In this document: one piece after another, positions 619 to 25,639 of the stretch
Layout of the letters: every line of letters starts with the position of its first letter
Numbering within the stretch: position 1 is the first letter of the stretch
NCBI GenBank assembly: GCA_005191425.1
Contig: SUPR01000046.1
Span: 1 to 25,690, forward strand
From: Candidatus Helarchaeota ASGARD archaeon Hel_GB_B
GTDB taxonomy: Archaea > Asgardarchaeota > Lokiarchaeia > Helarchaeales > HEL-GB-B
DNA: 25,690 nucleotides
Reading direction: 5' to 3'
The notes under the pieces: generated by a model
Seen by the model: the letters and a program-made list of their open reading frames with translations, nothing else
Told to the model about the DNA's origin: nothing
Databases searched by the model: none
Program-made: the position numbers and the translations under genes

Positions 619-642
619 AATAAAACATTTTATAAAATAGAA

Positions 643-1212: not shown

Positions 1213-1231
1213 TTTTTATTCAATTATTTAT

Positions 1232-2278
1232 TTAATAATAACCTAATTTCTCGCATATTGTTTTTGCTATACTCAGATTACGAATACAAATATCTTTTGG
1301 TTCCCATGGCCATTCACAACCAGCAGCAAACATATACATCCCCCCAGGTTTTCCAATCTCTAAAATATTAGATACATCATTAATAATTTCTTCAGGGGTT
1401 GAGTCTCTTTTACCTAGTAGTGATGTATTGGAATTTCCTCTAATGCAGATTTCATTACCTATTTTTTGTTTTGCTAATTTTAAATTAACTTGATAATCAA
1501 TATCTAATATAGATGCGCCGGACTTGGCTATTAATTTGAGCATATCATTTCCATTTTTATCAATAGTTGAATTATCGCCACAAGTATGATAGAGTACTGG
1601 AACATATTTTTGAATATCCTTAAATAACTTCTGAGTATATTCAAGACAAGCTTCTTTATATCTCCATGGACCAATTTGGGAAATAGCTGAATCTCCAGCC
1701 CCAATAATATCTGCACCAGCTTCAATTTGTAATTTTGCAAATTCTAGTTGGACAGGAACAATTCTTTTAATGAGTTTTTTAATTATATCATTCCATTTTT
1801 TGTTGTTGATTTTAAATACATTCATCATTCCAAATAAAGATACAATTTCTGCAAACGGTGCTTCAATCCACCCAATTATACATTGTTTAGTCCCGACTTT
1901 TTTGGACAAAATACTTATTGCTTTAACACGTTCCATAATTCTATCAGAACTAGTTAAATCAGGAGTTTCCATATTATCGAATTCTTGCCAATTTAATTCA
2001 GTCCCTTTTTTAGGGACAGGCGTATGTCCAGAGAAATCAATTTCAACGCCCCAAGCACTTGCCTCTCTATATGCATCTGTAGAAACATTTACATGGTCAA
2101 TACCAAAAAATTCTGAGCATTTAATTTGAGAATTAGCCAGTATCTCTGGATCTTTCACATACTTACCAGAATAATCAATATCATTTAAAACTGCTGCTAA
2201 ATGCATAATAAATGGGTTAAATGGAACTTTTTCAGGTATTCCACTAATTGCAGACATAGTTAAATCTCTTGAATTCAA
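1232..2278 (-). CDS. MtaA/CmuA/UroD-family (methylcobamide:thiol methyltransferase-like) protein
   Basis: TTG start. N-terminus MNSRD...G.PEKVPFNP, IIGWIEAPF, QIEAGADII and IRGNSNT. Zn-binding HxC...C motif retained (YHTCGD; AAGCEWP). Confidence 0.85.
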   Translation of the reverse strand: MNSRDLTMSAISGIPEKVPFNPFIMHLAAVLNDIDYSGKYVKDPEILANSQIKCSEFFGIDHVNVSTDAYREASAWGVEIDFSGHTPVPKKGTELNWQEFDNMETPDLTSSDRIMERVKAISILSKKVGTKQCIIGWIEAPFAEIVSLFGMMNVFKINNKKWNDIIKKLIKRIVPVQLEFAKLQIEAGADIIGAGDSAISQIGPWRYKEACLEYTQKLFKDIQKYVPVLYHTCGDNSTIDKNGNDMLKLIAKSGASILDIDYQVNLKLAKQKIGNEICIRGNSNTSLLGKRDSTPEEIINDVSNILEIGKPGGMYMFAAGCEWPWEPKDICIRNLSIAKTICEKLGYY

Positions 2279-2388
2279 AAAATCAACTCATTAAAAACCT
2301 TTTATTTAATATTTTAATAGATTGTCATTGATTATAATGATTACATTAAATTATCTTATTTTATTATTTATGGGACAATAGATTCTTT

Positions 2389-4152
2389 TCATTTAGTATT
2401 TTTATCATGTATATAAAGTGATGTGTTTAATTTTTTTAATTTTTCAATATCGATTTTGATTATCTCTCTATCATAAGTTAAAAGTCCGTTAATTTCGCCT
2501 TCTACATCAGTAATTTGAGTATAAATAGCAGCACATAAACCTTTATTTATTAATGGTTTTAATCTATTAATTAATTCTGTATATTTAATAACTAATTTAT
2601 TTTGATCTGATAATTTACTATAAGAAAAACTATGTTTTTTCTTTTTCCATAGATGATTATTAATTTTTAGACCTAAACCACCAAATTCTCCTAGAACTGC
2701 AACTCTATGATTTTCTATTTTAGGACATTTTGGGCCCACATATTTATGAATATCATGAATATCACCAACTTTCTTATCAAACCAACCACTTGCGTTATCA
2801 ATTAATCTTGATAAATCATGTTTTTTAATATAATTTACTACTTTTTTAGTTTCAAATTGCCCCCACCCTTCATTAAATGGTATCCAAACAATAACAGAGG
2901 GAAAATTGTAAAGAATTTCAATCATAGATTTAAGGTCTTTATAATAATTTTTTTTACATACTTTATTTCTTTTTTTACCAATAAAAAAAAGAGACTTACC
3001 ACCATTTGGCATATCCTGCCAAACTAGCATTCCAATTTTATCACAATGATAATACCATCGAGATGGCTCGATCTTTACATGTTTTCTAATCATATTAAAG
3101 CCAAGTTCTTTTGCTATCTCAATATCGTATTTCAAAGCCGAATCAGTAGGTGCAGTATATAACCCATCTGGCCAATATCCTTGGTCAAGCACACCATACT
3201 GAAAAATTTCTTTATTATTTAATAATATTCTGGGAATTCCATTATTATCTTTTCCTATACTTATTTTTCTCATTCCAAAATAACTTTCTATTGAATCAAT
3301 TTGTTCATTATTTCTTAAAATAGAAATATTTAAATCGTAAAGAAAAGGAGAATCTGGACTCCATAAATTTGGAGATGGAATATCCAGAATAAATGATTTG
3401 TTTATTTCTATTGTCTTGGAAACTATTTCTCTTTTTTTATCCAAAATCTGTATAAAAATAAAATCTTGGGGATTGGGATTCTGTACCATTATTTCAATAT
3501 TCAAATTTTCTTCATCAATGTTAGGAGTAATCTTTAAAGATGTTATAAAGGTTGTTGATATCGGTTCTAACCAGACTGTCTGCCAAATTCCAGAAATAGG
3601 AGTATAAAAAATCATAAAAGATCTTAGTAATTGCTTACCTCTCTCTTGACAACTTTTTCCAGTAGGATCCCATACAGATACAATTAATTCATTTTCATTA
3701 TTATTAATAAATTCTGAAATCTCAAATGAAAAAGGTATATAGCCGCCTCTATGGTCTCCAATCCTTTTTCCATTTATCCAAATTGTGCTCTCCCAATCAA
3801 TAGCCCCAAAATGCAATAATATTTTCTTACCATTCCATGATTCAGGTATTGTAAAAAACCGACGATACCATAACTTATTTTTTGGAGTTAAACGTTTTTT
3901 TACACCAGATAATGCAGATTCGATAGGAAATGGAACTAAAATTTTTCCATCAAAAGATTTAGGTATTTCATTATCCTTTTTAGGTCGTATTGCATAGTCC
4001 CATAGTCCATTTAAATTTATCCATTCATTTCTTCTGAGTTGTGGCCTTGGATATTCAGGTAATGGGTTTTTTGGACTAACATCTTGAACCCATCGAGTTA
4101 CAATTTTGTCTTTAATGGGATGCCAAATCTCTTGAGAACCATTATTTTTCAT
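2389..4152 (-). CDS. Glycoside hydrolase family 2 (beta-galactosidase/glucuronidase-like)
   Basis: PLPEYPRPQ, WINLNGLWDY, LHFGAIDW, ISGIWQTVWLE, GFNMIRKHVK, acid/base PFNEGWGQ and nucleophile GEFGG. No signal peptide seen. Confidence 0.92.
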   Translation of the reverse strand: MKNNGSQEIWHPIKDKIVTRWVQDVSPKNPLPEYPRPQLRRNEWINLNGLWDYAIRPKKDNEIPKSFDGKILVPFPIESALSGVKKRLTPKNKLWYRRFFTIPESWNGKKILLHFGAIDWESTIWINGKRIGDHRGGYIPFSFEISEFINNNENELIVSVWDPTGKSCQERGKQLLRSFMIFYTPISGIWQTVWLEPISTTFITSLKITPNIDEENLNIEIMVQNPNPQDFIFIQILDKKREIVSKTIEINKSFILDIPSPNLWSPDSPFLYDLNISILRNNEQIDSIESYFGMRKISIGKDNNGIPRILLNNKEIFQYGVLDQGYWPDGLYTAPTDSALKYDIEIAKELGFNMIRKHVKIEPSRWYYHCDKIGMLVWQDMPNGGKSLFFIGKKRNKVCKKNYYKDLKSMIEILYNFPSVIVWIPFNEGWGQFETKKVVNYIKKHDLSRLIDNASGWFDKKVGDIHDIHKYVGPKCPKIENHRVAVLGEFGGLGLKINNHLWKKKKHSFSYSKLSDQNKLVIKYTELINRLKPLINKGLCAAIYTQITDVEGEINGLLTYDREIIKIDIEKLKKLNTSLYIHDKNTK

Positions 4153-4344
4153 TTACTAGCCCAACATTCAGCAATTAATAGATATATAATAAATTAAAAT
4201 TCATAAATAAACAATTTAAAAATTTCTTCACTTTTCCAGTTCTTCCGAATGTTAAAAATTTACCTCCATTTGTAATTTTTTTGTTTGTACCATAAATATT
4301 TGAGTCCAATATTGAAGAGATTTTACTAAAATACACAATTTCAG

Positions 4345-4719
4345 CTAAAATGATGGTAGTATATATCTATTTTCCCGAGAGTACTTATAAAATAGATTAT
4401 ATAATATCCATAAATTATAAATGACCATGGGAAATAAATAATAAAATATGCTTACAATGAATATACTGGACGAAGTTCTTATCATGAAGAAGTTGGCCAT
4501 TTTAAAGGCGGTCTCTATTCCCCATCTATCCTTATATTGGGTTGCTATTTTTTTCAAATTATGATTAGTGCGGTTTCTTATCACTTTATTGGTAGTATAT
4601 GCATGGTATAATTTGAGAGTATCTTTCTCAGCCTTGTGAATCTCCGAGAGATTTGTCCATTCACTTTCATTTTTTACAAAGAAGACATTGAATTTATAAT
4701 CTCTGCTGTTTTCTCTCGG
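4345..4719 (-). mobile_element. Truncated IS4-superfamily (ISH3-like) transposase remnant, C-terminal DDE part only
   Basis: Frame open from 4719 to TAG at 4345. It contains YKDRWGIETAFK (Y-2-R-3-E motif) followed by IRTSS...FYYLF...YNLW. N-terminus absent (stop at 4720-4722). No terminal inverted repeats recognised. Confidence 0.75.
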
Positions 4720-4753
4720 TCAATCTTTGTTGATTGAAATTTAGAAATGATAA

Positions 4754-7507
4754 TTAGCTTGATTCAAATATATATCTTCCCGATTTTATTTCGAATAACG
4801 CCCAATTTTTTTTAAACTCAATAAATTTGATCCAATCTGAATCAAAAATAGATTTACCATTCTCGGTTATGGAATTTTTATTCTTAGCAGGAATATAAAT
4901 TGTAGCAGTAGTATTACAAGGTATTTTTAATTCTAAATTAAACTTATTATTTTTAAAACTCCAGCTCACGCTGATTCTACCATAAATGGAGTCATAATAA
5001 CCTTTTGCCCAAGTCAAGGTCTTATAAGGAATGGGTCTAATTATTATATGTTTATAACCAGGGTGTTTTTCGTCAAAATTAATTCCTAAAATTATTCTAT
5101 ATATCCATTCGCCAATAGCTCCTATTGAATAATGATTAAATGAATTCATCATTGGTGATTGAAAACCTCGTCCTTTTACATAACCATCCCATCGCTCCCA
5201 CATTGTTGTAGCTCCATTTTTTATCATATAATACCATGATGGAAATCTCTCGCTTTGTAACAATTTGTATGCTAATTCTACATAACCCCAATTTATCAAC
5301 TCCAGCATCATCATAATTGTCGTATGAAAACCAGTTGAAATTCTATTGTCATACTTTTCTATAGATTTTATCAGATTCTTTACTGCTTTTTCTCTTAAAT
5401 TTTCAGGTAATAAATCAAAATGTAAAGCAATGGCATAGCCTGCTTGAGTATCACCTTCTATTTTACCTGATTCAGAAACAAATTGTTTTTTAAATATTTC
5501 TTTAATTTTTAATGACAAATTAGAATATTTTATTGCGTCATCTTCATTTCCAAGTAATTTTGCCATTTTTGAGAGAATATTGGTAGAGTAAGCAAAAAAA
5601 GCGGTCGCAAATACTTTTTTAGGTATTTTACCCCCTTTACTGGGATAATCTTTTGATTTGATAGTGTCGCCATTTAGCCAATCATTGTATGCCTGTCCAG
5701 TATGATGTTTCCAAATTAAGTTAGGATTTTTTGAATAGACATGATCAATAAATCGTTTTGCTGAATTATAATGGTGTTCTATCACCCGTTTATCGCCATA
5801 ATTCAAGAAAATTAACCATGGGAGAATAACACCACAGTCAGCCCATCCAGGAGCATTTAAAGTAAATTTTATTCCCATTTTTAAAAAGTTATTGGGTGAA
5901 AAATCAGAGTACCGGCCATCTTCTATTTGAGCATCTCTAATGTCTTTAATCCATTTAGTATAAAATGCTGCCATGTCCATGTTAAATATAGAAGTTTGAC
6001 AAAATATATTTGCATCACCCATCCATCCAAGTCGCTCATCACGCTGTGGACAATCTGTTGGAACACTTATCAAATTATCAATTTGTGTCCAGAAGATATT
6101 TTTCCATAGTTTATTTAACATTGGATCAGAACTTTCAAAAGCACCAGTTTTCCTTATGCTCGAAGAAATGACATAAGCTTTTAAAAAATTAAGATCCAAT
6201 TTAGTTCCTTGTTTTAGACCACTAACTTCTACGTATTGAAATCCATGATAAGTAAAATAGGGGTGATATTCTTTTTTTCCATTTCCATTATAGATGAATT
6301 TATCGGTTGCTTTAGCAAATCGTAAATTTTTGGTATATAATGACCCATCTTCTTTTAGCATTTCACCATGTCTAAGTTTAATTATTCCATCTTTTTCACA
6401 AATAGATTCATTTATAATTATTTTACAAAAACCAGCTATATTTTGCCCAATATCGAATATAAAAATACCAGGTTTTGGTTCTGAAATAGAAGTTGGACTT
6501 AATTCTTTTATAATTTTTATTGGCTCATTCATTTGTGCTACCAAATTTACGTTTATACTGTCGTCTATGACCACATTTTTCCATTCAGAATCATTAAAAC
6601 CTGAGATGTTCCAATTTGGAATTTCTTTTCTTGAATCATAAATTTCACCAAGATAATGGTCAGACCGCCTAATAGGACCATCATAATAAATTTTCCAACT
6701 AGAATCAGAGTTAATTATTCTTTTTTCATCATTAGAAAAAGTAATTTCCATTTGAAATAAAAATCTACGGTCATTTCCCCATATTCTTGATCCAGTTATA
6801 AAACCAATATTACCAATATACCATCCATCTCCGAGAATTGCACTAATAATATTTTCTCCTCGTTCCAATAAATTAGTTACTATAAAAGTCTGATATTGAA
6901 CTCTATAATCATAATCTGTCCATTCAGGAGCTAAAAAATGGTCGCCAACTCTTTTACCATTAAGAAATAATTCATATTCTCCCAAAGCAGAAACATAAAT
7001 TACTGCTTTCTTGATTTCATGATCAATTACAAACGATTTTCTTAATAAGGGAGAAGGGTCTTCCTTCCTTTTCCTTAGAAATTTTCTGATTTTATTAAGA
7101 AATATTTTCTTTTTAGGAGGTCCAATCCATTTTGCAGACCACTCATCAGAATTGAGTAACCCTATCTCCCAATAAGCAATTTCACTCCAGTTAGAAGGGT
7201 TATTGTCCTTGTCCCAGACCATTACCTTCCAAAAACATTCCATTCTAGATTTTAATGGCATACCATGATATTCAATTTGGTTCTGTATATCCGACTCAAT
7301 TTTCCCTGTATCCCATAAATTACCTTCATTTTTTTCGATTAAATCTTTACTATCCGAAACAATGATCCTATAAGCATTTTGGAAATCTCCTCTTCTATCA
7401 GAGATTAATTCCCAACTTAACCTCGGATTTGTAATATCTATTCCAATTGGGTTTATTAAATATTCACACCTTAAATTAATTACTTTTATTGTTATTTTAG
7501 ACACCAT
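4754..7507 (-). CDS. Alpha-L-rhamnosidase, GH78
   Basis: LRCEYLINPIGID..PRLSW, PLLRKSF, SALGEYE, FTYHGFQYVEV, catalytic PTDCPQRDERLGWMGD, GATTMWERWDG and MNSFNHY. Confidence 0.95.
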   Translation of the reverse strand: MVSKITIKVINLRCEYLINPIGIDITNPRLSWELISDRRGDFQNAYRIIVSDSKDLIEKNEGNLWDTGKIESDIQNQIEYHGMPLKSRMECFWKVMVWDKDNNPSNWSEIAYWEIGLLNSDEWSAKWIGPPKKKIFLNKIRKFLRKRKEDPSPLLRKSFVIDHEIKKAVIYVSALGEYELFLNGKRVGDHFLAPEWTDYDYRVQYQTFIVTNLLERGENIISAILGDGWYIGNIGFITGSRIWGNDRRFLFQMEITFSNDEKRIINSDSSWKIYYDGPIRRSDHYLGEIYDSRKEIPNWNISGFNDSEWKNVVIDDSINVNLVAQMNEPIKIIKELSPTSISEPKPGIFIFDIGQNIAGFCKIIINESICEKDGIIKLRHGEMLKEDGSLYTKNLRFAKATDKFIYNGNGKKEYHPYFTYHGFQYVEVSGLKQGTKLDLNFLKAYVISSSIRKTGAFESSDPMLNKLWKNIFWTQIDNLISVPTDCPQRDERLGWMGDANIFCQTSIFNMDMAAFYTKWIKDIRDAQIEDGRYSDFSPNNFLKMGIKFTLNAPGWADCGVILPWLIFLNYGDKRVIEHHYNSAKRFIDHVYSKNPNLIWKHHTGQAYNDWLNGDTIKSKDYPSKGGKIPKKVFATAFFAYSTNILSKMAKLLGNEDDAIKYSNLSLKIKEIFKKQFVSESGKIEGDTQAGYAIALHFDLLPENLREKAVKNLIKSIEKYDNRISTGFHTTIMMMLELINWGYVELAYKLLQSERFPSWYYMIKNGATTMWERWDGYVKGRGFQSPMMNSFNHYSIGAIGEWIYRIILGINFDEKHPGYKHIIIRPIPYKTLTWAKGYYDSIYGRISVSWSFKNNKFNLELKIPCNTTATIYIPAKNKNSITENGKSIFDSDWIKFIEFKKNWALFEIKSGRYIFESS

Positions 7508-7916
7508 ATTATTGATAATTTAAATAAAATTAAGTAGAATATCATTAATTTATTTTGTGTTTAATTAATTAATAAATTAATTTTTTAAAAAGTACTGGAA
7601 TAAATAGATGGAAAATTATTTATATTTTAGATTATAAAAGATAATGTCTAGTTTTTTTTAAAATATTTGTCTTAGTTAAAAATTTTTTAAAATTTACGAT
7701 TATTATATTATTTGGATTTCTATTTCAACATTTAAATTTCTAAAATTTGCGTTTGTATAAAAAGATTTACATTAAAATTCTTTTATAATAAAATGGATTT
7801 ACTTCATTTACAATCAAAAATTTATATTTAATTAGATATCTTTTATAAATGAAAGAAGATAAATGAAGATAAATAAAGATTAAAAAAGTGATAAATAATA
7901 AAATTGGGATGTATAA

Positions 7917-11090
<3,174 letters not shown>

Positions 11091-11159: not shown

Positions 11160-12017
11160 TTAAGAATTAATATTATTACTAAGAATTCTGATTATTCTGG
11201 GATGAATATATTCGCATATTTTTATATTAGAACCACCATGTGTATTTATCAGATATTTTCCATCACATACATTTTCTGCACAGTTTTTTACCAATTTTAC
11301 AAGTTCTAAAAAGAAATTCTTAGATAATCCACGACTACCATAATCTCCTAAGGCGGTATCATGTCCTAGTAAATGTACGATCAAGTCAGGCTGAAATTCC
11401 TCAACTCGTCTAATAAATTCATTTTTTACTTTTGATAAATATTCCGTATCATTAGTAGAATATCCAGAATCAATACAAATTTTCGTACCATTGTCTTCAA
11501 TTTTATTTGTATCGCAAAAACATACATGTAATATGTTATGTTTTCCAAACGTAATAGCTCTTGTACCGTTTCCATGGTGCGAATCGGTATCGAGAATTGC
11601 AATTTTAAAATTAGTAAATTTCTGTTCTAAGTTTGCAATTATACCACCACTAACAGAAGCATAAGTTCCACCCCATCCATTATCAGGTCCTGCATGATGC
11701 CCAGCAGCGACACCAAAACACAGAGCATTATGAAATTCGTTTTTCATTATTCTTTCTGCAGCATCAACACATCCACCAACAGTATATCTAGCACCTAAAT
11801 AATCCCATCTCCTTTTTAAATATTCAAAATATTCTTTTGTATGAACTTTTAACAATAATTCTTCAGAAATTAAAGGTGGTTCAATTAATCGAACATTTTT
11901 TAAGTTTAATTCGGATTCCATTACTTTAGGAAAATTTTGAAATTTATTATTAATGATATCCCAAATTTTCTTGTTAAATAATTCATGAAAGTATACAGCT
12001 GTTATATTTAAAACCAT
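11160..12017 (-). CDS. Histone deacetylase/AcuC-family Zn hydrolase, divergent
   Basis: LLLKVHTKEY, GHHAG dyad, DTDSHHGNGT and GHD Zn ligands, FQPDLIV. The ATG at 12017 is preferred over the GTG at 12026, which is part of a GTGAT SD-like motif. Confidence 0.85.
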   Translation of the reverse strand: MVLNITAVYFHELFNKKIWDIINNKFQNFPKVMESELNLKNVRLIEPPLISEELLLKVHTKEYFEYLKRRWDYLGARYTVGGCVDAAERIMKNEFHNALCFGVAAGHHAGPDNGWGGTYASVSGGIIANLEQKFTNFKIAILDTDSHHGNGTRAITFGKHNILHVCFCDTNKIEDNGTKICIDSGYSTNDTEYLSKVKNEFIRRVEEFQPDLIVHLLGHDTALGDYGSRGLSKNFFLELVKLVKNCAENVCDGKYLINTHGGSNIKICEYIHPRIIRILSNNINS

Positions 12018-12435
12018 AAAAATCACTAATTATTATTAATTTTTGATAATATAATTTATAAAGTTCCAATTAATTTAAAGAATTCTACACATGTAATGCT
12101 TATTCAAAAATTGTTTAAATATGATGCATAATAAATATCTGTAACTTTTTATTAATCGCATAAAAAAATATATGTTAAATTTAAGTAAAAAAATAAAAAA
12201 ATAAGAGAATATATTCTATAAAAGAATTTACAGATATATTCATTTTAAAAATAGATATCTCAGAATTAAATAGTAAAATATCGTATATATTTTTCAAATT
12301 TCTGAATAAAATTAATAAAATTTTTGTACTATTTAAAAAAAGATTATTGGTTTAATTTAATAATAAAGACAAATGAGCTTAAAAGTATAAAAATTAATTA
12401 AGACATTAAAAGATAATAATTAAAAAATATGAAAG

Positions 12436-12711
12436 ATGATCAAAATGGCAAAAATTGAAGTCAAAAAACCAACGAAAGAAGAGATTGAAGAAGCTAAAAA
12501 CTGGGGTATCTGGGAAAAGGAACCAAGCGAATTTGATTGGTATTATGACACACCGGAAAGTTGTTATATATTAGAAGGAGAGGTAACAGTTAAAACTGAA
12601 GATGGAGATGAGGTAACTATTAAAGCTGGAGATCTTGTTCACTTTCCACAAGGATTAAAATGTGTTTGGAATGTAAAGAAAAAAATTCGTAAACATTTTA
12701 CTTTTAAATAA
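12436..12711 (+). CDS. Cupin-domain protein (DUF861/cupin_3, EutQ-like)
   Basis: WGIWEKEPSEFDWYYDTPESCYILEGEVTV...IKAGDLVHFPQGLKCVWNV. Confidence 0.9.
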   Translation: MIKMAKIEVKKPTKEEIEEAKNWGIWEKEPSEFDWYYDTPESCYILEGEVTVKTEDGDEVTIKAGDLVHFPQGLKCVWNVKKKIRKHFTFK

Positions 12712-12740: not shown

Positions 12741-13313
12741 ATGAGAAAATTAGGAATTTTAAGATTTGGAAATATAGATAATGATTTGATTTTGTTTATT
12801 ACTAATGAATTAGGAAAAATTTTTTCTAATGTATTTAATAAAGTAGAGGTTTTAAAAAAAATAGAAAAAATTCCACCGATTGCATTTAATCAACAAAGAA
12901 ATCAATATAAAGCCCCCTTAATCATGGAAGTCATTCGGTCAAATGCTCTTAATAGTGGTTATGACAAAATATTAGGAATTGTAAATGTCGATTTATATGT
13001 CCCAAACTTAAATTTTATATTTGGACAAGCAGAATTCTCAGAATCAGGGAAGGACACGCGTGCATGCATTATTTCTATAACAAGGTTAATGCCAAGTTTT
13101 TATAAAAACATAGAATTGAATAAAGATTTGGTCAAATTATTATATTTAAGAACCTTAAAGGAAGCTCTTCATGAAATAGGCCATACTCTAGGATTACGAC
13201 ATTGTAATTCATTTAATTGCGTTATGCGGTTTTCAAATTGTTTAGAAGATACTGATGAAAAACCTGCATATTTTTGTAAAAAATGCGCTAAAAAGATTGG
13301 CATTTTTATTTAA
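12741..13313 (+). CDS. amzA: Archaemetzincin (peptidase M54)
   Basis: HEIGHTLGLRHC zinc motif, CVMRFS Met-turn, FCKKC completing the Cys4 site, and RNQY, DLYVPNLNFIFG. Confidence 0.92.
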   Translation: MRKLGILRFGNIDNDLILFITNELGKIFSNVFNKVEVLKKIEKIPPIAFNQQRNQYKAPLIMEVIRSNALNSGYDKILGIVNVDLYVPNLNFIFGQAEFSESGKDTRACIISITRLMPSFYKNIELNKDLVKLLYLRTLKEALHEIGHTLGLRHCNSFNCVMRFSNCLEDTDEKPAYFCKKCAKKIGIFI

Positions 13314-13453: not shown

Positions 13454-14971
13454 TTACAATAAATTTCTGTTAAATATCTGGTATTGCTCATCAAAATTAT
13501 GCGTAGAATTTATAGAAAATGCTTTTTGGAAAAACGCTTGGTCATTAGGATTAAAGTATTTAAATCCAAAATAGTTCCATTTGGTATCAGGATCGAGAGT
13601 AGAGCATAGTAATAATTTATTATCAAGAAAATTATGTATTAGAATTCTAGTTTTCTTTTTAGTATTAATTACACCGTGAATTAAAATATTATCAGATAAA
13701 TTTGAGAAATTATTAGAAAACATAAAATTTATCTGGCTGATATCCAGTCTTTTATTTTCAATTAATTTAGCAATTAAAAAGGCAGCATTTTCATAAAGTT
13801 GTTCATTTGAATTTCCCCAAAGATAAACATGCGAATGCGAAGTATATTCGTCCTTTTTTAGCTTTTTTTGTAAACTATAAGGAGATAATAATTTGATAAG
13901 ATTAAGACCAAGAATATTTTCTGCATCAGTTAAAGTGCCGCCATTTTGGATAAAATCTTGGGAAATCAAAAATTTTATATTATCTTTTGCGTGAAATGGT
14001 GTAAAATATGGAAAATCAGTTCCAAAAAGCAATTTTTCAGACCAAGATCGAGATGCGTTGGGGATATTTTGTTTATACCAATTCATAAATGAGAGAAAAA
14101 AGTCATGTGTCCCCTTTCCGTGGAGCATTGAAATTTCGCCCCAGATATTTGGGTCAGAAATAACTCTATAGACTTCTTCATTTCCAATATAACCCATAGC
14201 ACAATGAGCTACTATTACTTTTAAATGGTTAATTAATTCGGGAGCATTTTTTTTCAATTGATTACGAGTTTTATGGACTAATTCTTGTATGTCAATAATG
14301 GATTGGGCACCTCTTGTATCAAAAATTACTGGAATAGAGTTTTTAGCAGCAGTTATTAATACTTTTACTGCGAAGTCAGCAGATATTTCGTCAGTCCAGC
14401 CATCGGATCTTGGATGGAGTTTTAGACCTCTTAATCCTAGAGTATTAATTGCATAATCTACTTCATCAGGGGCTTGTGTCTGCCTTGGGTTTACTCTGCA
14501 ATATCCAATTAATCTCATTGAATTTGGGAAATGCGTACTAAATCGAGCAATATTCAAATTTGATGCCCGGTATTGTGCTTCAGGTTTATTATCTCTGAAG
14601 GTATCTTGAAATGGAAAACAAACACCATGGTCTATTAACCATCCACCGTTCATTTTATCAAAAACAGTAGAATAATTGCTACTATTTCTTTCTTTTAAAA
14701 ATTTGAAAACATTATAAATAAATGGCATTGGAATAAATTTAAATTCAAAACGGTGGACTTTTCCATTTATAGATAACTGATAGTTTAATACACTTTCTTT
14801 TTCTACTTTACTCTGAGTTTCAATATAAAAATTATAAGTACCACCAGGAGCTAAAGGGTTCATGTTACTAACACTATCAATATCACTACCTAAGTGAGAA
14901 TGAGCATCAATAACAATTATTTTTTTGAAAATAACTGAATTGTCAGGCAAGGTTATTTTTACTAGAATCAC
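13454..14971 (-). CDS. Amidohydrolase (amidohydro_2-type TIM barrel) with insertion and ~140-aa unassigned C-terminal domain
   Basis: DAHSHLG, GLRGLKLHP, VIVAH and LLFGTDFPY. The start is placed at GTG 14971 (AGGTG motif upstream, 19 bp gap after the ligase stop) rather than 15022, which overlaps the upstream gene. Confidence 0.82.
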   Translation of the reverse strand: MILVKITLPDNSVIFKKIIVIDAHSHLGSDIDSVSNMNPLAPGGTYNFYIETQSKVEKESVLNYQLSINGKVHRFEFKFIPMPFIYNVFKFLKERNSSNYSTVFDKMNGGWLIDHGVCFPFQDTFRDNKPEAQYRASNLNIARFSTHFPNSMRLIGYCRVNPRQTQAPDEVDYAINTLGLRGLKLHPRSDGWTDEISADFAVKVLITAAKNSIPVIFDTRGAQSIIDIQELVHKTRNQLKKNAPELINHLKVIVAHCAMGYIGNEEVYRVISDPNIWGEISMLHGKGTHDFFLSFMNWYKQNIPNASRSWSEKLLFGTDFPYFTPFHAKDNIKFLISQDFIQNGGTLTDAENILGLNLIKLLSPYSLQKKLKKDEYTSHSHVYLWGNSNEQLYENAAFLIAKLIENKRLDISQINFMFSNNFSNLSDNILIHGVINTKKKTRILIHNFLDNKLLLCSTLDPDTKWNYFGFKYFNPNDQAFFQKAFSINSTHNFDEQYQIFNRNLL

Positions 14972-14990
14972 AGTTAAACACCTGTAAATT

Positions 14991-16415
14991 TTACCAAAAT
15001 TTTGGATAATTTGGTTTTCCATTTAATGGAGAATAAGTAGGATTTACAATACAATTATGAGTCATATATACCAAATCGCCTAATAATTTGAAAGCATCAC
15101 CTTGTCTATAATTGTAAAGGCTTAATTGATATTCAGCTTCTGTTAGGGGAGGGTCTGCCCAATCAACTGATCCATACACTGAAATTATAATTGGGTCAAG
15201 AAAAGGAATTTTTCTTAATGGGACTTTAAAAAACTTTTTTATTGATTTATCTTCACCTATAAATCTAAGCATACCTTTAACAGCATCTTGCATTAATCTA
15301 CCTTCTGTATTAAAATAGCAATCAGCAAAATTTGGGTCTATACTAGCGATTTGGTCACTATCAGCGTCTTCGGTCCTAAAGACTGAGAATAATCCTCTTG
15401 ATATTGCACCAACTCGGTTTTTAACTATAGTGGCTGACCCTACATCGGGAACTTCCCTCATATTTCTAGCTTTAAAAGCAAGTAATTGTAATAATAAAGC
15501 TATACCAATTCTTCTTGCGATAGAGGTTTGTGCATCAGAAATTCTTGTCTCGATTGTCCCAAAATCAGTGTATGGAAATATATCCTGTTGTCTGGCGTCT
15601 TCTAATGATGCTTTTTGAATAGTATTTAAAAAGAAATCGATATTATTTGGATCGGTCATATATGGGATGTAGTGTTTAGGATCATTTAAAGAAAGCATGG
15701 TATCATTTTTCTTAAGTCTAATACTACGAACACAACCGGGACATGCATAACGCTTCCCTATTATTTTGATAGCATCAGTAGGATGGCCATTCATAAGAGA
15801 GGAATTTACCGACAATGCCAAGATGTGTGGTAAAAAATTTCTAAACATATTGTATATCTTGATTTTTTCATAATCGTCCTTGAAGGTCCCCATATGACTA
15901 TGGTCAGCGAAGGTAAGTCCTCTAAAATATTCTTGCTGTAATGGATTAAATCCAGCAGAAACTAAGAATAATTCTTTAGGGAGTACCAATTCAGCTATTA
16001 ATAAAACAGCTTGAGCCCACCAAACTAGTTCTTCAATATATTCACATGGTGGAGTAACACATTCTAATATATAAGTGATTGCTGCAACATTTCCATCTCT
16101 TCCAAAAATTTCGATATCAATTGGTTTTCCATGAAGTTTATAGCTTAAAGTTAAAACATCTCCTTTTTCTTCGTTATATGTTATCATTGGTGTATCAGCA
16201 ATTTTTTTCTCGATTATTGATGGGATATTTTCGTATTCAATCATATGAATTAAAATGTCTCTAGCCTGTTCTACCATTTTTTTCATGAGAAAGACCATGT
16301 CATCGCCTTTAAGAAATTGGCCATTTTCGTCTAGCATTTGGATTTCCATTTCTATTCCATGACTAAAAGGTAAAGGAATTGGTTTTTTAGGGAATTCCCA
16401 TTTTTGTTTGCTCAA
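14991..16415 (-). CDS. Carboxylate-amine ligase, glutamate-cysteine ligase family 2 (GCS2/YbdK-like)
   Basis: HGIEMEIQ (ExE), LECVTPPC, LVSAGFNP, FADHSHMG, ILALSVNS and DIFPYTDFGTIETRISDAQ align by eye to the GCS2 motif series. TTG start with GGAG upstream. Confidence 0.85.
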   Translation of the reverse strand: MSKQKWEFPKKPIPLPFSHGIEMEIQMLDENGQFLKGDDMVFLMKKMVEQARDILIHMIEYENIPSIIEKKIADTPMITYNEEKGDVLTLSYKLHGKPIDIEIFGRDGNVAAITYILECVTPPCEYIEELVWWAQAVLLIAELVLPKELFLVSAGFNPLQQEYFRGLTFADHSHMGTFKDDYEKIKIYNMFRNFLPHILALSVNSSLMNGHPTDAIKIIGKRYACPGCVRSIRLKKNDTMLSLNDPKHYIPYMTDPNNIDFFLNTIQKASLEDARQQDIFPYTDFGTIETRISDAQTSIARRIGIALLLQLLAFKARNMREVPDVGSATIVKNRVGAISRGLFSVFRTEDADSDQIASIDPNFADCYFNTEGRLMQDAVKGMLRFIGEDKSIKKFFKVPLRKIPFLDPIIISVYGSVDWADPPLTEAEYQLSLYNYRQGDAFKLLGDLVYMTHNCIVNPTYSPLNGKPNYPKFW

Positions 16416-16455: not shown

Positions 16456-17544
16456 TTATTGAAAAATGTTAAAAAATTTTAATAAAAGAGTTTTATTATC
16501 TAATAAATTAGTTGTAAATATAATATTAATTACATTTATATTCATATTTTGAGTTATTTTTTCTAAATCTTCATACAAAATTCCATGACTAAATAATTTA
16601 TCATCAATTATAATTTCTATCTCATTCTTTAATCCATCATCAATTTTTTGAATGATTTTCTTATAATTTTCTTTATTATCTTTTCCAATAATTATTGAAG
16701 GCATTTTACCAATGGGTGATATAAACCCAACATTGAATAAATATAATTGTGTAATTTCAGGAGGTAATTGGCTTTTAACAAAATACTCAAAGGCATTTTT
16801 TATCACTAAAGCGTCTTCTTTAGAGTATTCTTGGTCGATGGGGTAAGTTATATAATAAAAAAGTTTTTTTCTTAATCTTTTTAAATTGAAAAAAATATCA
16901 CGGAGAAATTGAAGTTCTTGACCTCCAGTAGTGTCGATCAGGTCAGGATTGTAAAATAAGATGGTGATCAAATGAGAATGAATATTTTCACCAATGGGGT
17001 TAGCATCGCCACCAATATTAATAAAATGATTTACTTCTTTTGGAGCAGCTGATGTATCTATTACATTAAAATAAATATTTTTTATTAATATTAAATTTTC
17101 AATTATTTGTTCCTTAAATACCTCTTTTTTAATTGTTTTCGGGACATTAGGTTGTGCAATTTGTGGTGTACTTATCCCATTTAAGCTGTTTGGCTGGTTT
17201 GTCTGAATAGGCGGGACATAATTTGGGCTTGGAACCTCAATAATAGATTTGATTCTCTTCTTAAATAACCCAATAACTTTAATTGATAAATTCTGAAGTC
17301 CTGGTTTTAATGGCTGAACTTTTATAGATAAATCTTTTACTTGATTTACATCAAGATTAAATTCTGGTTTTTCGGATATTTCACATTTTAAATTTGGATA
17401 TTGAAATTTCAATATATATTTCGATGCTATATTTCCAGTATTTTTTATTTTTATATCAATCGCATATTTATTTTTAGTCTGAATTAAGCTCATCGGTATA
17501 TTTACAATTTCAAGTTCACAGTCCTGTATGATCTGCTCATTCAT
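16456..17544 (-). CDS. Hypothetical protein: N-terminal Ig-like beta-sandwich, P/Q/N-rich linker, C-terminal alpha/beta domain
   Basis: IKIKNTGN...FNLDVNQVKDLSIKVQPLKPGLQNLSIKV is a CARDB/Ig-like pattern; PNYVPPIQTNQPN linker. Start uncertain (17544, 17553 or 17601). Confidence 0.65.
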   Translation of the reverse strand: MNEQIIQDCELEIVNIPMSLIQTKNKYAIDIKIKNTGNIASKYILKFQYPNLKCEISEKPEFNLDVNQVKDLSIKVQPLKPGLQNLSIKVIGLFKKRIKSIIEVPSPNYVPPIQTNQPNSLNGISTPQIAQPNVPKTIKKEVFKEQIIENLILIKNIYFNVIDTSAAPKEVNHFINIGGDANPIGENIHSHLITILFYNPDLIDTTGGQELQFLRDIFFNLKRLRKKLFYYITYPIDQEYSKEDALVIKNAFEYFVKSQLPPEITQLYLFNVGFISPIGKMPSIIIGKDNKENYKKIIQKIDDGLKNEIEIIIDDKLFSHGILYEDLEKITQNMNINVINIIFTTNLLDNKTLLLKFFNIFQ

Positions 17545-17710
17545 AAAAAACATTTCCGATTTATATTTCCTAAATACTTGAATAAACAGACAAAAGAGCA
17601 ATATGATATAAAAAAATTTAGTAATTTTTTAATGCGTGTTTACAAGGAAATTTAAGATATTAGTTTTTGAGAAGTTAATATACTTTTTAGGAAAATATCA
17701 TTTTAATAAT

Positions 17711-19797: not shown

Positions 19798-20238
19798 TTA
19801 TCCGAATATTGATTTTAATCGATCTTCGGGTTTTTTAACAAGATCACCAAGAATCTTATCAAAAATGGGAATAAATTCATCATATTCTGAGAGGTCTCTT
19901 GATAAGTCAATCGACCCATATTTATCGATAAATTCTTCAATTATTTTTGTTAATGCGCGTTTTGCCAATTTTAAATTAAGTTTTTTGTCCCCTATACAAT
20001 AAGAAATAATATTTTCTGTTTCTGTTTCATCTATCCGATGAGTTAAAAGAACAATTTTAAAATTTTTCATACTAAATGATTCTATTTCATCTGAAAAAGC
20101 TTGAGCAGCAAATGAATTCAATGCACTTAAGAAACCACTTCTAAGAATAGGATCTACTGGCATTGAATGTTCTTCATAATATTGTTTTGATATTAAGGGG
20201 ACACCATTATTGATTATTCCTAATTCATAGATTACCAA
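19798..20238 (-). CDS. Stand-alone longin-domain protein (Asgard eukaryotic-signature type)
   Basis: Beta-beta-alpha-beta-beta-beta-alpha-alpha pattern: IYELGIINNGVPLI, DPILRSGFLSALNSFA, IESFSMKNFKIV, IISYCIGD, LTKIIEEFIDKY, YDEFIPIFDKIL. TTG start with GGAG upstream. Confidence 0.8.
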   Translation of the reverse strand: MVIYELGIINNGVPLISKQYYEEHSMPVDPILRSGFLSALNSFAAQAFSDEIESFSMKNFKIVLLTHRIDETETENIISYCIGDKKLNLKLAKRALTKIIEEFIDKYGSIDLSRDLSEYDEFIPIFDKILGDLVKKPEDRLKSIFG

Positions 20239-20613: not shown

Positions 20614-21360
20614 TTGAGCAATGGAGAGATTTACGATTTGAGTAATGATAAAATAAAGTTGCTAGTTTCACCACGATCAAAAGTCGAAGCAGAGGAATGT
20701 ATTAAAGCGGAAGTTGATATTATTGATATAAAAAATCCAGTCGAAGGTAGTTTAGGTGCAAATTTTCCTTGGATTATTAAGGAAATTTTAGAGATTGTTC
20801 CAAAAAATATACCAGTAAGCGCAACAATCGGAGATCTACCAGACCTCCCGGGTACTGCATCTCTTGCTGCTCTGGGAGTTGCAACATGTGGGGTCTCATA
20901 TATTAAAGCAGGTATTAAGGGCCCTAAGAATATTGAAGATGCAATTAATTTAATGAAGAAAATAAGTAAAGCAGTTAAAAGTTATAATAAAAATATAAAA
21001 GTAGTTGCTGCCGCTTATGCAGATTATAAGCGATTTGGGACGATAAATCCTTTATTAATCACAGAAGTTGCCCAGAAAGCAGAATGCGATGTTGCTATGA
21101 TCGATACCGGGATTAAAGACGGAAAAGGTCTTTTTAATTTTCTAAATACAGATGATTTGAAAAAACTGATTAACGATGGCCATGAGAAAAATCTAGAAGT
21201 CGCTTTGGCTGGTTCTCTAAAGGAAAAAGATATAGTCGTTTTGAAAGATTTGGCGCCAGATATTATTGGAGTAAGAGGGGCTGCTTGCGAAGGATATGAC
21301 CGATTAAATGGATCCATTAAAAGTAGTAGAATTAAAGTACTAAAGGAGTTATTGGTCTAA
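20614..21360 (+). CDS. mfnB: (5-formylfuran-3-yl)methyl phosphate synthase (4-HFC-P synthase), methanofuran biosynthesis
   Basis: KLLVSPRSKVEA, DIIDIKNPVEGSLGANFPW, PVSATIGD, YIKAG, YAD, AMIDTGIKDGK, ALAGSL, PDIIGVRGAAC. Confidence 0.93.
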   Translation: MSNGEIYDLSNDKIKLLVSPRSKVEAEECIKAEVDIIDIKNPVEGSLGANFPWIIKEILEIVPKNIPVSATIGDLPDLPGTASLAALGVATCGVSYIKAGIKGPKNIEDAINLMKKISKAVKSYNKNIKVVAAAYADYKRFGTINPLLITEVAQKAECDVAMIDTGIKDGKGLFNFLNTDDLKKLINDGHEKNLEVALAGSLKEKDIVVLKDLAPDIIGVRGAACEGYDRLNGSIKSSRIKVLKELLV

Positions 21361-21361
21361 A

Positions 21362-22624
21362 CTAATTATCTTTATTAAAGGTATCAGAATATTTTTTAGC
21401 AAACCCATATAAACTTTTAATTTCATTGTAGGATAATTTATCAGTTTCAAAAATTACATGTTCAGTATCATAATGATCCCAATTCTTATCAATTATTTTA
21501 ATATTAAATACATCATTTCCTTCATCAAATAATCTTGAGCCGGGATAAGGAGTTGCAATAAAAAAGTCAATTCTATCTTCCCCAGGGATGAGTGGTAATT
21601 TTTCAATAAATTTAATAGTTTTTTCAAAAGATTTTTGAGAATCACCTGGTAATCCTATTATAAAATAGCATTGAACAGCAATTCCTGCTTTTTTAGCATT
21701 TGAAATTCCGGATTTAATTTTATTAAGTGATTGAAATTTTCCGTTCAATTTTAATAAATTTGTATCTGCACTTTCTATTCCAATTGCAATAACTTTACAT
21801 CCAGCCTTTGCCATTTCGCGCGTCATTTGATACGATAATTTATCTCCTCTGAGTTCTGCACCCCAAGGTATATGAACATTATATTTATTTATTAATTTAC
21901 AAATTTCTAATGGAATATCCGAATAAATGTTTATGTTATCATATAAATTTATGAACTGATATCCAAGGTTTTCTAAATCAGCCATTTCTTTTACTATATT
22001 TAGAGGATTTCTGACCCGGACATTAGTAAAAAGTTTTTGTCTGACGCAAAAACTACAATTGAATGGGCATCCTCTATTAACAATAATTGAAGCTACATCA
22101 TAATGAGTTGGTATAATGTTTTTTCTATCAGGGAATGGAAAAGAATCCACATCAAAAATCTTTGAGAACCCATTTGATAAAACTTTTTTACCATTTCTAT
22201 AGGCTAATCCCTTTGTTTTTCTATAATTGTTATTTAATAAATGATACAATTGAAACAAAGAATATTCGCCTTCTCCCAAAATTATGAAATCAATATTAGA
22301 CTGTGAGCTGAGAATTTCCTTCCACATAAAAGAAGCGTGTGGACCACCCATCACGATCTTACTATCAGGCGATTTAGTTTTAATATAATTTATCGTTTTT
22401 AATGCAACATTATATGTATTAGTGAGACAGGTAATCCCGATTAATGGTGGTTTTGACATCAAATATGAATTAAAAAGCGCTTTATCATTTGTATCAATTA
22501 CTTTAACTTCTAGCCCCTTCATTCTTAAATATGTAGCCATTGTTAATAATCCTGAAGGAGGTTCTCGGTTATATGATCGTTTTGTTAATAATTCGGTACC
22601 TGGATTTAATAATAAAATGTCCAT
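21362..22624 (-). CDS. Cobalamin-binding radical SAM protein (class B type)
   Basis: N-terminal B12-binding domain (PPSGL, IVMGGPHAS, GEGE), NRGCPFNCSFC (CxxxCxxC), IGIESAD, FIIGLPGDS, TPYPGS. Confidence 0.92.
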   Translation of the reverse strand: MDILLLNPGTELLTKRSYNREPPSGLLTMATYLRMKGLEVKVIDTNDKALFNSYLMSKPPLIGITCLTNTYNVALKTINYIKTKSPDSKIVMGGPHASFMWKEILSSQSNIDFIILGEGEYSLFQLYHLLNNNYRKTKGLAYRNGKKVLSNGFSKIFDVDSFPFPDRKNIIPTHYDVASIIVNRGCPFNCSFCVRQKLFTNVRVRNPLNIVKEMADLENLGYQFINLYDNINIYSDIPLEICKLINKYNVHIPWGAELRGDKLSYQMTREMAKAGCKVIAIGIESADTNLLKLNGKFQSLNKIKSGISNAKKAGIAVQCYFIIGLPGDSQKSFEKTIKFIEKLPLIPGEDRIDFFIATPYPGSRLFDEGNDVFNIKIIDKNWDHYDTEHVIFETDKLSYNEIKSLYGFAKKYSDTFNKDN

Positions 22625-22734: not shown

Positions 22735-23169
22735 CTAAAATATATCATTTTCCTTTAATTTTTGTAGAATATAATCACAAACTTTTTCGATATCTTTTTC
22801 TTTAATATTGCTCATTTGTGATATCTGTGTTAATTCATTAATATCTTTTAAATTTAATATCTTTTTGGGAACAATCTTATTTACGTTTATAACCAAATCA
22901 GGTTTAATGTCCAATTTTCTAAAAATCTGAAAAGCACAAGCACCAGAGCACCCGTCGATAATTACGCTAAAATTAGATGTTATATTATTTTTCATTATAT
23001 TAAAATATTGCTCTTTTTTTAAAATAAAATATTTTAATGTAATTGTAAGACATAGAACTGAACAATTTTTTGCAATGGAACTCTTTTCACTTAATCTAAT
23101 TGCAGCTTGGCGGGCTAATTCACCGTTATATTCAGCACCTGAACAAGGAATAAATATAACAGATTTCAA
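22735..23169 (-). CDS. DGC-domain putative zinc-binding protein (paralog 3)
   Basis: IFIPCSG...GELARQAA...VLCL...IIDGCSGACA; TTG start. Confidence 0.85.
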   Translation of the reverse strand: MKSVIFIPCSGAEYNGELARQAAIRLSEKSSIAKNCSVLCLTITLKYFILKKEQYFNIMKNNITSNFSVIIDGCSGACAFQIFRKLDIKPDLVINVNKIVPKKILNLKDINELTQISQMSNIKEKDIEKVCDYILQKLKENDIF

Positions 23170-23496: not shown

Positions 23497-24522
23497 TTAA
23501 ATTGTTTTTTCATTAGGAGAGCAAATTTTTTCAATTTTAGAGGATAATTTTAAAATAAGAATCATAAGTGGAATTTGAATTATTGGAGCAAAAGCAGCTG
23601 GAAGGACAGTTAATCCACCAAATGTTGTTAAAGCTATAGCTATAGTAATTGAATGATTTTTTGCTGTAATTCCATATGTTAATGCGATTGTATCTTCATA
23701 ACAACAATTAGTAAACTTTGAGTAAATTATTCCAATAATTGCTAAAGATGGATAAAGAATAATAATTCCAAGAGATATCATTAAAATATAATCTAAATTA
23801 AGTAAAATAGTAGTAGATTCTAGAGATATTGAAATAAATACAATCATATACATTCCAAAGCTAGAAATAGTTGGAAAAATAGGTTGGATCTTTTTAAATT
23901 TTTCAATTTTAATTAGTTTTATTAATGCTAATCTTGTTAAATAACCAGCAATAATAGGCAATAAAATAATTAATAGCAATTTTTGAAGCATCATCAAAAT
24001 ATCAATCTGTATATAAATTCCAACTAAAATTACCATCCAAAATGGAATTAAAAAAATAGATAGAATTAAGCTTAATGATACAATAATTAGAGCAGATTCA
24101 ACTTTACCTTTTGCAAATCCAGTCCAAGCAATTACCATTCCACTACACGGAACAGTAGACTTAAGTACAAAACCTACATAAAGCATCATGTCTAAATTTT
24201 TAATAAAATATGTACCAATTAAATCACCAAGTAATGGAGAAATAATAAAATTTAAGATTATAGCTGAAATCATCAATTTTAAATTTTTTAAACTATCTTT
24301 TATTTTCTCAATTTTTAAATTAATCATCATAGGATATAGCATGATAAATAAAGGAATAGAAACATAAGGTTTAACAAATTTTATGGAATATGAAAAATAA
24401 TAGCCAAAAATTAGACCTAAAATAATACAAATTAAAATAAAAATTGGCAAAAACTTTTTGTTCAACTCAGAAAATCTAGTAATTTTTGATTTTATCTCTT
24501 TAATTTCGGAGTTCAATAACAT
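23497..24522 (-). CDS. acr3: Acr3-like (arsenite efflux / BART-SBF superfamily) membrane transporter
   Basis: About 10 hydrophobic segments, LFIMLYPMM, LNFIISPLL, PCSGMVIAWTGFAKG (Acr3 Cys motif), LLLIILLPIIAG. Confidence 0.75.
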   Translation of the reverse strand: MLLNSEIKEIKSKITRFSELNKKFLPIFILICIILGLIFGYYFSYSIKFVKPYVSIPLFIMLYPMMINLKIEKIKDSLKNLKLMISAIILNFIISPLLGDLIGTYFIKNLDMMLYVGFVLKSTVPCSGMVIAWTGFAKGKVESALIIVSLSLILSIFLIPFWMVILVGIYIQIDILMMLQKLLLIILLPIIAGYLTRLALIKLIKIEKFKKIQPIFPTISSFGMYMIVFISISLESTTILLNLDYILMISLGIIILYPSLAIIGIIYSKFTNCCYEDTIALTYGITAKNHSITIAIALTTFGGLTVLPAAFAPIIQIPLMILILKLSSKIEKICSPNEKTI

Positions 24523-25207: not shown

Positions 25208-25639
25208 TTATTTATTGATTTTATTATATTTACTCGTCTTAAAGTAATTTTTTATTTTTTCAGTGATTTCTTTTGCTAATAAATATGCTAACTTTTTTGC
25301 GTTTTTACCAATAGGTATAATTGATTCTTCAGCTTCAATATCTGAATTTTTATCAATAAAGGCATCAACCATAATTTTGAAGATAATATTTCCACCTGCA
25401 ATCGAAACATTATTTTCGGCACATTTTACCGGACAGCCATCGAGAACAATACATTTATGATCTTTTAATGATATTAATTCTTGTTCATCATCTCTCATAA
25501 TTAATGGAAGACACCCTAAAATTGTATTATTTGGTAATAAATCATTTGTAATGATATATGTTGCTTCCCTTCCAATAGAACCGGAAACTTTTCCAATTCC
25601 ATCACATGAAACAATTATTATTTTTTCTTTGTTTTTCAT
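25208..25639 (-). CDS. DGC-domain putative zinc-binding protein (paralog 1)
   Basis: IIIVSCDGIGKVSGSIGREA...LGCLP...CIVLDGCPVKCA. Confidence 0.88.
   Translation of the reverse strand: MKNKEKIIIVSCDGIGKVSGSIGREATYIITNDLLPNNTILGCLPLIMRDDEQELISLKDHKCIVLDGCPVKCAENNVSIAGGNIIFKIMVDAFIDKNSDIEAEESIIPIGKNAKKLAYLLAKEITEKIKNYFKTSKYNKINK

Follow-up and report, generated by a model that had tools for sequence, protein, structure and literature searches.

In pupylation, the carboxylate-amine ligase fold joins a protein carboxylate to a protein amine and is paired with an enzyme of removal or maturation, Dop (a deamidase and depupylase) preparing Pup by deamidation before PafA conjugates it. ATP-dependent amide synthetases genetically coupled to amide-cleaving enzymes are also represented by glutathionylspermidine synthetase/amidase and by PuuA/PuuD. 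A 2008 analysis of pupylation groups PafA with GCS and glutamine synthetase, and the terms 'amidohydrolase' and 'vWA' do not occur in its text (PMC2588565). Here we describe a gene set in a 25,690-nucleotide stretch of the genome of Candidatus Helarchaeota archaeon Hel_GB_B (GenBank assembly GCA_005191425.1, contig SUPR01000046.1, positions 1 to 25,690; hereafter the window), in which a YbdK-like ligase is coupled with a TIM-barrel protein of the Amidohydro_2 type (the barrel enzyme, or hydrolase), a vWA protein and a further domain that we call the partner domain. All four are inherited together, the trees of ligase, hydrolase and vWA protein agree, and the vWA protein is fused to the ligase or to a hydrolase-like domain in some genomes. 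Our preferred interpretation, to which we give a probability of roughly 45%, is that they form a four-part machine that ligates amides on a macromolecule, the ligase and the barrel enzyme being catalytic and the vWA protein serving in docking. No description of this gene set was found in the full-text literature searched.

The closest described relatives of the ligase are the YbdK/GCS2 enzymes (PF04107; E. coli 1r8g, Salmonella 1tt4), with which it shares the whole fold and the ExE, E, HxH, S-x-R and E-x-R motifs. In contrast to YbdK, the window ligase is about 100 amino acids (aa) longer and contains a conserved 53-aa beta-meander insert, and the Asgard ligases have obligate partners, occur in other lineages with long extensions or within giant fusions, and have an Asgard-only range. 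PafA and Dop have the same carboxylate-amine ligase superfamily fold, but lie much further from the window ligase (Z 19-20) than YbdK does (32.8), and no Pup_ligase Pfam match was obtained for it at E <=0.01. Whereas pupylation employs PafA and Dop as ligase paralogues, the second enzyme here is a predicted TIM-barrel metalloenzyme, and neither a Pup-like gene nor proteasome genes were found among the open reading frames (ORFs) of the window or the conserved neighbours. This second enzyme shares with the Amidohydro_2 enzymes ACMSD, LigI, LigW, LigJ and IDCase the TIM barrel, the strand-1 HxH, the strand-6 His, the strand-8 Asp and the GLKLHP sequence, but differs from them in an Asp instead of a His on strand 5, an insert of ~85 aa after strand 1 and an extra C-terminal domain of ~130 aa. 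The glutathionylspermidine and PuuA/PuuD couples, for their part, are of different folds, have no vWA/Cdc48N partner, and come with linked pathway genes, none of which is linked here.

The ligase and the barrel enzyme

At the sequence level, the ligase barely meets the Pfam GCS2 threshold (21.6 bits, cut-off 21) over a single 33-residue stretch, and its best NCBIfam score is 46.2 bits against cut-offs of 176-425 for the YbdK/GshA models (TIGR02050 and PRK13515-13518, archaeal GshA included; for PRK13518, 30.2 bits against 395). Since scores of about 46 bits stand against cut-offs of 176-425, amounting to about one tenth to one quarter of the equivalog values, the ligase belongs to none of the curated GshA/YbdK equivalogs, nor to haloarchaeal GshA. 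In hhalign, a profile of 75 family members aligned with the YbdK profile over YbdK residues 3-355 (Prob 100, E 2.5e-50). The AlphaFold (AF2) model of the ligase (predicted local distance difference test, pLDDT, 92.8; predicted TM-score, pTM, 0.94) gave VIA Z scores of 32.8 to 1tt4 and 32.4 to 1r8g, with 330-331 of ~353 residues aligned at a root-mean-square deviation of 2.8 A and 21-22% identity, so that the glutamine-synthetase/GCL-type fold extends over the whole catalytic domain; Foldseek gave E 6e-15. YbdK was followed in the structural ranking by plant GCL (Z 26.5), GshAB (21), Dop/PafA (19-20), GshA (18-19) and glutamine synthetases (~15).

An earlier reading of this DNA from its letters and ORFs (the sequence-only reading) had credited the ligase with ExE, E, HxH and E-x-R catalytic motifs, and these are borne out: E22-x-E24, E118, H172-x-H174 and E289-x-R291, together with S231 and R233, are invariant in the 75 family members, and all five motifs, S-x-R included, line up with the matching YbdK residues. 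Judged by alignment and model, the ligase is thus predicted to be a complete YbdK-fold enzyme with its catalytic motifs intact. The long insert that had been noticed between the first two motifs is real, at about half the length originally given. The second Glu of ExE and the next Glu are 94 residues apart here and 41 apart in E. coli YbdK, so that the insert measures ~53 aa (residues ~62-110). In the AlphaFold model its strands 77-81, 85-94 and 97-106 form a beta-meander, and it is among the best-conserved regions of the family, with Y92 and D107 invariant. An Arg-to-Phe change in a 'D-I-R-P' stretch was considered as a clue to the substrate and rejected, the Arg not being conserved in YbdK-like proteins, whose consensus is WDVTPF.

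The window ligase is the minimal form of its family, without the Lys-rich N-terminal arm or the C-terminal extension of other members, and it has no close paralogue in its own genome, where there is a single match. In Loki-type loci (L059-L136) the ligase bears a Lys-rich N-terminal arm of ~90 aa that is missing from the window ligase. ORFs of 980-1400 aa contain the ligase in six of the Asgard families surveyed below (f8, f9, f20, f23, f27 and f28), the extensions of the long ligases in other lineages measuring 500-900 aa. Their C-terminal extensions match no Pfam family and are unrelated both to the partner domain and to the window's 381-aa ORF, which carries it.

The hydrolase matches Pfam Amidohydro_2 (PF04909) at 33.1 bits against a cut-off of 26.4, as do 52 of the 66 members of its family; no NCBIfam model matched, and a sequence search of solved structures returned nothing significant (best E 0.4). 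In its own genome the sole other match is a weak generic Amidohydro_2 protein (E 2.6e-4). Its AF2 model (pLDDT 91.3) places the barrel at residues 35-382, and VIA gave the highest Z (22.2) to the uncharacterised amidohydrolases 3nur and 3cjp, followed by LigW, a COG3618 enzyme, ACMSD, LigJ, LigI and IDCase at Z 19-21.6. Identity to the nearest structures is 11-19%, with 228-259 of the ~347 barrel-region residues aligned, and the structural scores are flat across the superfamily (Z 22-16), with no subtype standing out. On sequence and model alike, the barrel enzyme would not belong to any recognisable known Amidohydro_2 subtype.

H41-x-H43, after strand 1, is at least 90% conserved, and K201-x-H203 (strand 4), D235 (strand 5), H273 (strand 6) and D336 (strand 8) are invariant; these seven residues likely constitute the active site. 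When the usual Amidohydro_2 ligand set was tested, HxH and Asp336 were present and the strand-5 His was replaced by the invariant Asp235. Among nine ordinary Asgard Amidohydro_2 proteins aligned to the family profile, six have His in the Asp235 column, and all nine have GLKLHP, so that the K-x-H motif is not specific to the family. The ligand set proposed from the sequence, with Asp in the place usual for His, is thus conserved. Equally real are the two additional parts that had been pointed out: the insert after HSHLG (~47-130), modelled with high confidence as helix, beta-hairpin and helix and containing the near-invariant N55, P56, P59, G61 and T62, and the C-terminal alpha/beta domain (~390-522), also confidently modelled. 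Neither is covered by a Pfam family in any of the 66 members, and the C-terminal domain gave no lead in the ESM Atlas. The sequence-only reading had named, as findings that would speak against it, a ligase nested in haloarchaeal GshA and a hydrolase of a known decarboxylase or lactonase subtype; the ligase does not score as GshA, and the hydrolase is no recognisable known subtype. That the two are not ordinary stand-alone metabolic enzymes is supported.

A co-inherited gene set of Asgard archaea

We surveyed 200 other Asgard genomes belonging to 27 families (f2-f28). The ligase is present in nine families (f2 38/40, f3 1/3, f7 1/1, f8 35/43, f9 5/5, f20 6/6, f23 8/10, f27 1/1 and f28 3/3 genomes) and was found in none of the remaining 18, for example f6 (0/21) and f13 (0/19). 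Strong hydrolase matches (E <1e-70) occur in the same nine families in near-equal counts, the matches of the hydrolase profile in other families being weak and corresponding to ordinary Amidohydro_2 proteins of 250-330 aa. The vWA partner, searched with the last 416 aa of the window protein, follows the same nine-family pattern, with none in the other 18 families. Counts for the three proteins vary slightly (f2 38-39/40, f23 7-8/10), and the discordant genomes noted are mostly fragmented or incomplete assemblies. Families f9 and f20 have paralogues amounting to two full sets. Maximum-likelihood trees of the ligase, the hydrolase and the vWA partner agree: the window sequences group with f3 in all three, and the second set carried by genome G038 falls with f23 each time (support 100/98, 99/96 and 100/100), and has therefore been duplicated as a unit.

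In a survey of one genome per species (185,579 species), 225 loci encode a relative, and the 80 of these 225 that are listed all carry Asgard or unclassified-archaeon labels, bar one with a bacterial label. Among the loci listed, the gene set is thus restricted to Asgard archaea. The locus with the bacterial label (L128, DATKTW010000113.1, 'Candidatus Nanopelagicaceae bacterium') encodes a ligase 48% identical to that of the window; this is a typical Loki-type sequence, and the contig is probably a mis-binned Asgard contig.

The arrangement of the genes varies among lineages. The window and Hel-type relatives have the order vWA-partner-ligase-hydrolase; Loki-type loci have partner/scaffold-ligase-hydrolase, with the vWA gene elsewhere in the genome; and f23 has hydrolase, ligase, vWA. 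In f8, f9 and f20 the hydrolase and then the vWA gene form an adjacent pair, divergent from the long ligase in f9 and f20 and 7-9 kb from it in f8. The f8 genes lying between (DUF92, SPFH/NfeD and Rce1-like) appear unrelated to the module. A 352-aa long-coiled-coil protein is encoded after the hydrolase in 36 of the 80 loci listed, at Loki-type loci, and a 241-aa gene conserved upstream in Loki-type loci, which looks like a cis-prenyl-diphosphate synthase (DGNRRWA motif), was set aside as plain synteny.

Fusions connect the same parts. A search with the ligase profile among 1.84 billion representative proteins returned P0294 and P0395, in which the entire vWA partner (E 7e-56 to its profile) is fused to the ligase. 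In f8, a protein of ~875 aa adjoining the hydrolase-vWA pair (L045:15840-18461 (+), L046:15134-17770 (+)) combines a hydrolase-like domain with a vWA-partner-like (Cdc48N/vWA-like) domain (E 3e-35); its equivalents of HxH, the K/H strand, D235, H273 and D336 are all lost, and by its sequence it would be a pseudoenzyme paralogue of two module parts. Because fusions of the vWA protein occur both with the ligase and, in other genomes, with a hydrolase-like domain, it is likely a docking hub contacting both enzymes. Metagenomic giants of 2200-3800 aa (P0275, P0283, P0296 and P0297) bear an Asgard-type ligase domain near the C-terminus; one also has a helix-hairpin-helix domain, and the remainder of these giants is without Pfam family. 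Further ligase forms include Zn-ribbon fusions and a helix-hairpin-helix fusion. Among the 169 proteins returned (representatives and cluster members), none is a ligase-hydrolase or partner-domain fusion.

The vWA protein matches Pfam VWA and VWA_2 and has an intact metal-ion-dependent adhesion site (MIDAS) motif, DxSxS...T...D; of 11 family members, 4 have a CDC48_N match (best E 5.6e-8). In every locus examined, the partner domain (~190 aa) is encoded immediately upstream of the ligase. By BLASTP it matches the C-terminus of a ~620-aa protein that precedes the ligase in Loki-type loci, and by hhalign a ~220-aa protein whose gene immediately precedes those of the long ligases in f8, f9, f20 and f27 (Prob 95, E 3.9e-8, 173 columns). 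Its motif, D-x3-F-G-G-G-x3-Y, is degenerate (FSHG) in the window copy. Neither Pfam nor the solved structures gave a match to the partner-domain profile (A4), and the ESM Atlas matches of the 381-aa ORF were limited to its own ~620-aa relatives. The partner domain was considered as a C-terminal tag and is not an obvious one, because its C-termini are not conserved.

The operon and its surroundings

The window has a G+C content of ~28% and comes from a 3.5 Mb genome estimated to be 94% complete, and the closest relatives of its proteins carry Helarchaeota, Lokiarchaeota or Promethearchaeota labels. The apparent operon consists of five minus-strand ORFs separated by short gaps: the 146-aa ORF, the 685-aa vWA protein, the 381-aa ORF, the ligase and the hydrolase (Table 1).

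Table 1. Coordinates of the operon parts and of neighbouring genes in the window
Feature	Position	Strand	Basis
Ligase (P0001), predicted YbdK/GCS2-fold ATP-dependent carboxylate-amine ligase, 474 aa	14991..16415	-	Pfam GCS2, hhalign, AF2, VIA
Beta-meander insert of ligase, residues ~62-110, between ExE and Glu118	16086..16232	-	alignment, model strands, invariant Y92/D107
Barrel enzyme (P0002), predicted Amidohydro_2-type metal-dependent TIM barrel, 522 aa in longest ORF	13454..15022	-	Pfam, AF2, VIA
Hydrolase insert, residues ~47-130, between barrel strands 1 and 2	14633..14884	-	model secondary structure, near-invariant residues
Hydrolase C-terminal alpha/beta domain, residues ~390-522	13457..13855	-	confident model, length kept across family
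381-aa ORF carrying partner domain	16456-17601	-	open reading frame
Partner domain, C-terminal ~190 aa of 381-aa ORF	16459..17037	-	BLASTP, hhalign, alignment A4
Cdc48-N-like barrels and vWA with intact MIDAS, 685 aa	17711..19768	-	Pfam VWA and VWA_2, DxSxS...T...D motif
146-aa ORF, first operon gene, weak Longin match	19798..20238	-	Pfam Longin 17.7 bits, under cut-off
4-HFC-P synthase	20614-21360	+	Pfam 4HFCP_synth, E 9e-82
Mannosidase Ig domains	1-618		
GH2 enzyme	2389-4152		
Alpha-L-rhamnosidase	4754-7507		
LacZ-type beta-galactosidase, 1057 aa	7917-11090		
Histone-deacetylase-family protein	11160-12026		
Small EutQ-like cupin	12436-12711		
Archaemetzincin metalloprotease	12741-13313		
B12-binding radical SAM enzyme	21362-22624		
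DGC-domain protein	22735-23169		
SBF-family transporter	23497-24522		
DGC-domain protein	25208-25639		

The ligase starts with TTG, preceded by the Shine-Dalgarno sequence AAGGAG. Its 32-nucleotide overlap with the hydrolase exists only with the first hydrolase ATG. The nearest hydrolase homologues have 505 aa and start at the position of Val18 (GTG, 14971), a codon that lies 19 nucleotides past the ligase stop codon and has AGGTG 10 nucleotides upstream, and residues 1-16 of the longest ORF are modelled with pLDDT <50. Because of the homologue start and the upstream AGGTG, the true hydrolase is probably the 505-aa protein from GTG 14971, and the overlap an artefact of ORF calling; the tight coupling of the two genes remarked on earlier holds whichever hydrolase start is used. 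The 381-aa ORF has its probable start at ATG 17544 (residue 20), where both the alignment with its closest homologue (L057) and the public sequence record begin. Its N-terminal half has a weak Ig-like match (TRAPPC13_C), under cut-off. The 146-aa ORF was rejected as a part of the module, being without a homologue near the module in other loci, and does not resemble the 352-aa coiled-coil protein encoded at Loki-type loci; its distribution indicates a local addition to the operon.

Upstream of the operon the 4-HFC-P synthase gene is divergent. Downstream of it lie the histone-deacetylase-family and EutQ-like genes and the archaemetzincin gene, which is convergent with that of the hydrolase; none of these three is conserved with the module. 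Positions 1-11090 of the window are occupied by a glycoside hydrolase cluster.

Possible functions of the gene set

In the preferred interpretation of amide ligation on a macromolecule, the ligase would activate a carboxylate with ATP, forming an acyl-phosphate in the manner of YbdK and glutamate-cysteine ligase, and would then join it to an amine. The substrate, most likely a protein or peptide, would be presented by the carboxylate-binding MIDAS of the vWA domain and by the Cdc48N-like barrels, and the His/His/Asp/His/Asp metal site of the barrel enzyme would act on the same substrate or on the product, most likely hydrolysing an amide and so reversing or trimming the mark. That the substrate is a macromolecule is suggested by the docking partners, which are obligate, by the fusions and long arms, and by the giant forms; in the window genome the whole set is contained in one operon, with the ligase in its minimal core form. 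Of the macromolecular recognition proposed by the sequence-only reading, the multi-protein context stands, through co-inheritance, fusions and long extensions, while a tag protein was not found. A more specific version, which we regard as less probable, is a ubiquitin-independent system of protein conjugation in Asgard archaea, in which the ligase would write an isopeptide or gamma-glutamyl-type amide, the barrel enzyme would erase or mature it, and the vWA protein and partner domain would select the substrate.

Several points weigh against this interpretation. No small tag protein was found, nor a conserved C-terminal Gly or Glu in any protein of the module, and no proteasome or AAA+ gene is linked to it within the window. 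The structures nearest to the barrel enzyme, apart from uncharacterised proteins, are decarboxylases, lactonases and hydratases, not amidases, none of them standing out, and the opposing activities that had been proposed for the two enzymes are accordingly not supported. The module was not found in 18 of the 27 Asgard families sampled, and because it is missing from so many it would not be a core Asgard function. Finally, because the genomes are kin, the co-occurrence counts are inflated and not independent; the informative points are the all-or-none pattern at the family level, the genomes with two sets and the trees.

A serious rival, if on balance an unlikely one, is a small-molecule pathway in which the ligase would amidate a metabolite, cofactor or polyamine (by gamma-glutamyl-type or other chemistry) and the barrel enzyme would carry out a later decarboxylation or hydrolysis, comparable to the protect-transform-deprotect route of PuuA/PuuD, with the vWA protein and the partner domain merely scaffolding or regulating. 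Small molecules are the substrates of YbdK and the glutamate-cysteine ligases, the nearest relatives of the ligase, and the characterised Amidohydro_2 relatives use small aromatic or dicarboxylic acids. The gene divergent beside the operon, for 4-HFC-P synthase of the methanofuran pathway, would fit as well, but it is not kept at other loci, and the module has no oxidoreductase, transporter or further pathway gene as a conserved companion. An obligate vWA/Cdc48N partner, its fusions, giant multidomain forms and long arms would moreover be atypical for a metabolic ligase. Glutathione-type chemistry, with the ligase as a divergent GshA making gamma-glutamylcysteine and the hydrolase as an unrelated neighbour, is highly improbable: it can draw on the Pfam GCS2 match at threshold and the weak NCBIfam YbdK/GshA matches, but would have to accommodate the low equivalog scores, the conserved 53-aa insert, and a ligase that is strictly co-inherited with the hydrolase and vWA partner and agrees with both in its tree.

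The two catalytic parts could also work in the same direction, the barrel enzyme exposing a carboxylate by deamidation or trimming, as Dop does for Pup, before the ligase conjugates it, so that their activities would be sequential and not opposing. We consider this sequence of events quite unlikely as a full account, although PafA and Dop provide a precedent and are structurally related to the ligase (Z 19-20), and the hydrolase has its closest link with the vWA protein, with which it is paired in f8, f9 and f20 and whose order is kept in the fusion of the dead hydrolase with the vWA-like domain; no precursor or tag gene was found. Within the preferred interpretation of a machine acting on macromolecules, a Dop-like preparatory role for the barrel enzyme and an amide-reversing one are equally open.

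The window holds the most compact version of the module, with one operon and a minimal ligase, and is therefore a convenient starting point for expression and reconstitution. If a small molecule is made, the module would point to an unknown Asgard metabolite or cofactor. If instead proteins are modified, it would add a third kind of protein tagging in prokaryotes to pupylation and the ubiquitin-like systems. Cdc48-N-type barrels and vWA domains serve the ubiquitin/proteasome and segregase pathways of eukaryotes. No other known prokaryotes are as closely related to eukaryotes as the Asgard archaea, and lineage-specific protein-handling systems in these archaea bear on the origin of eukaryotic regulation.

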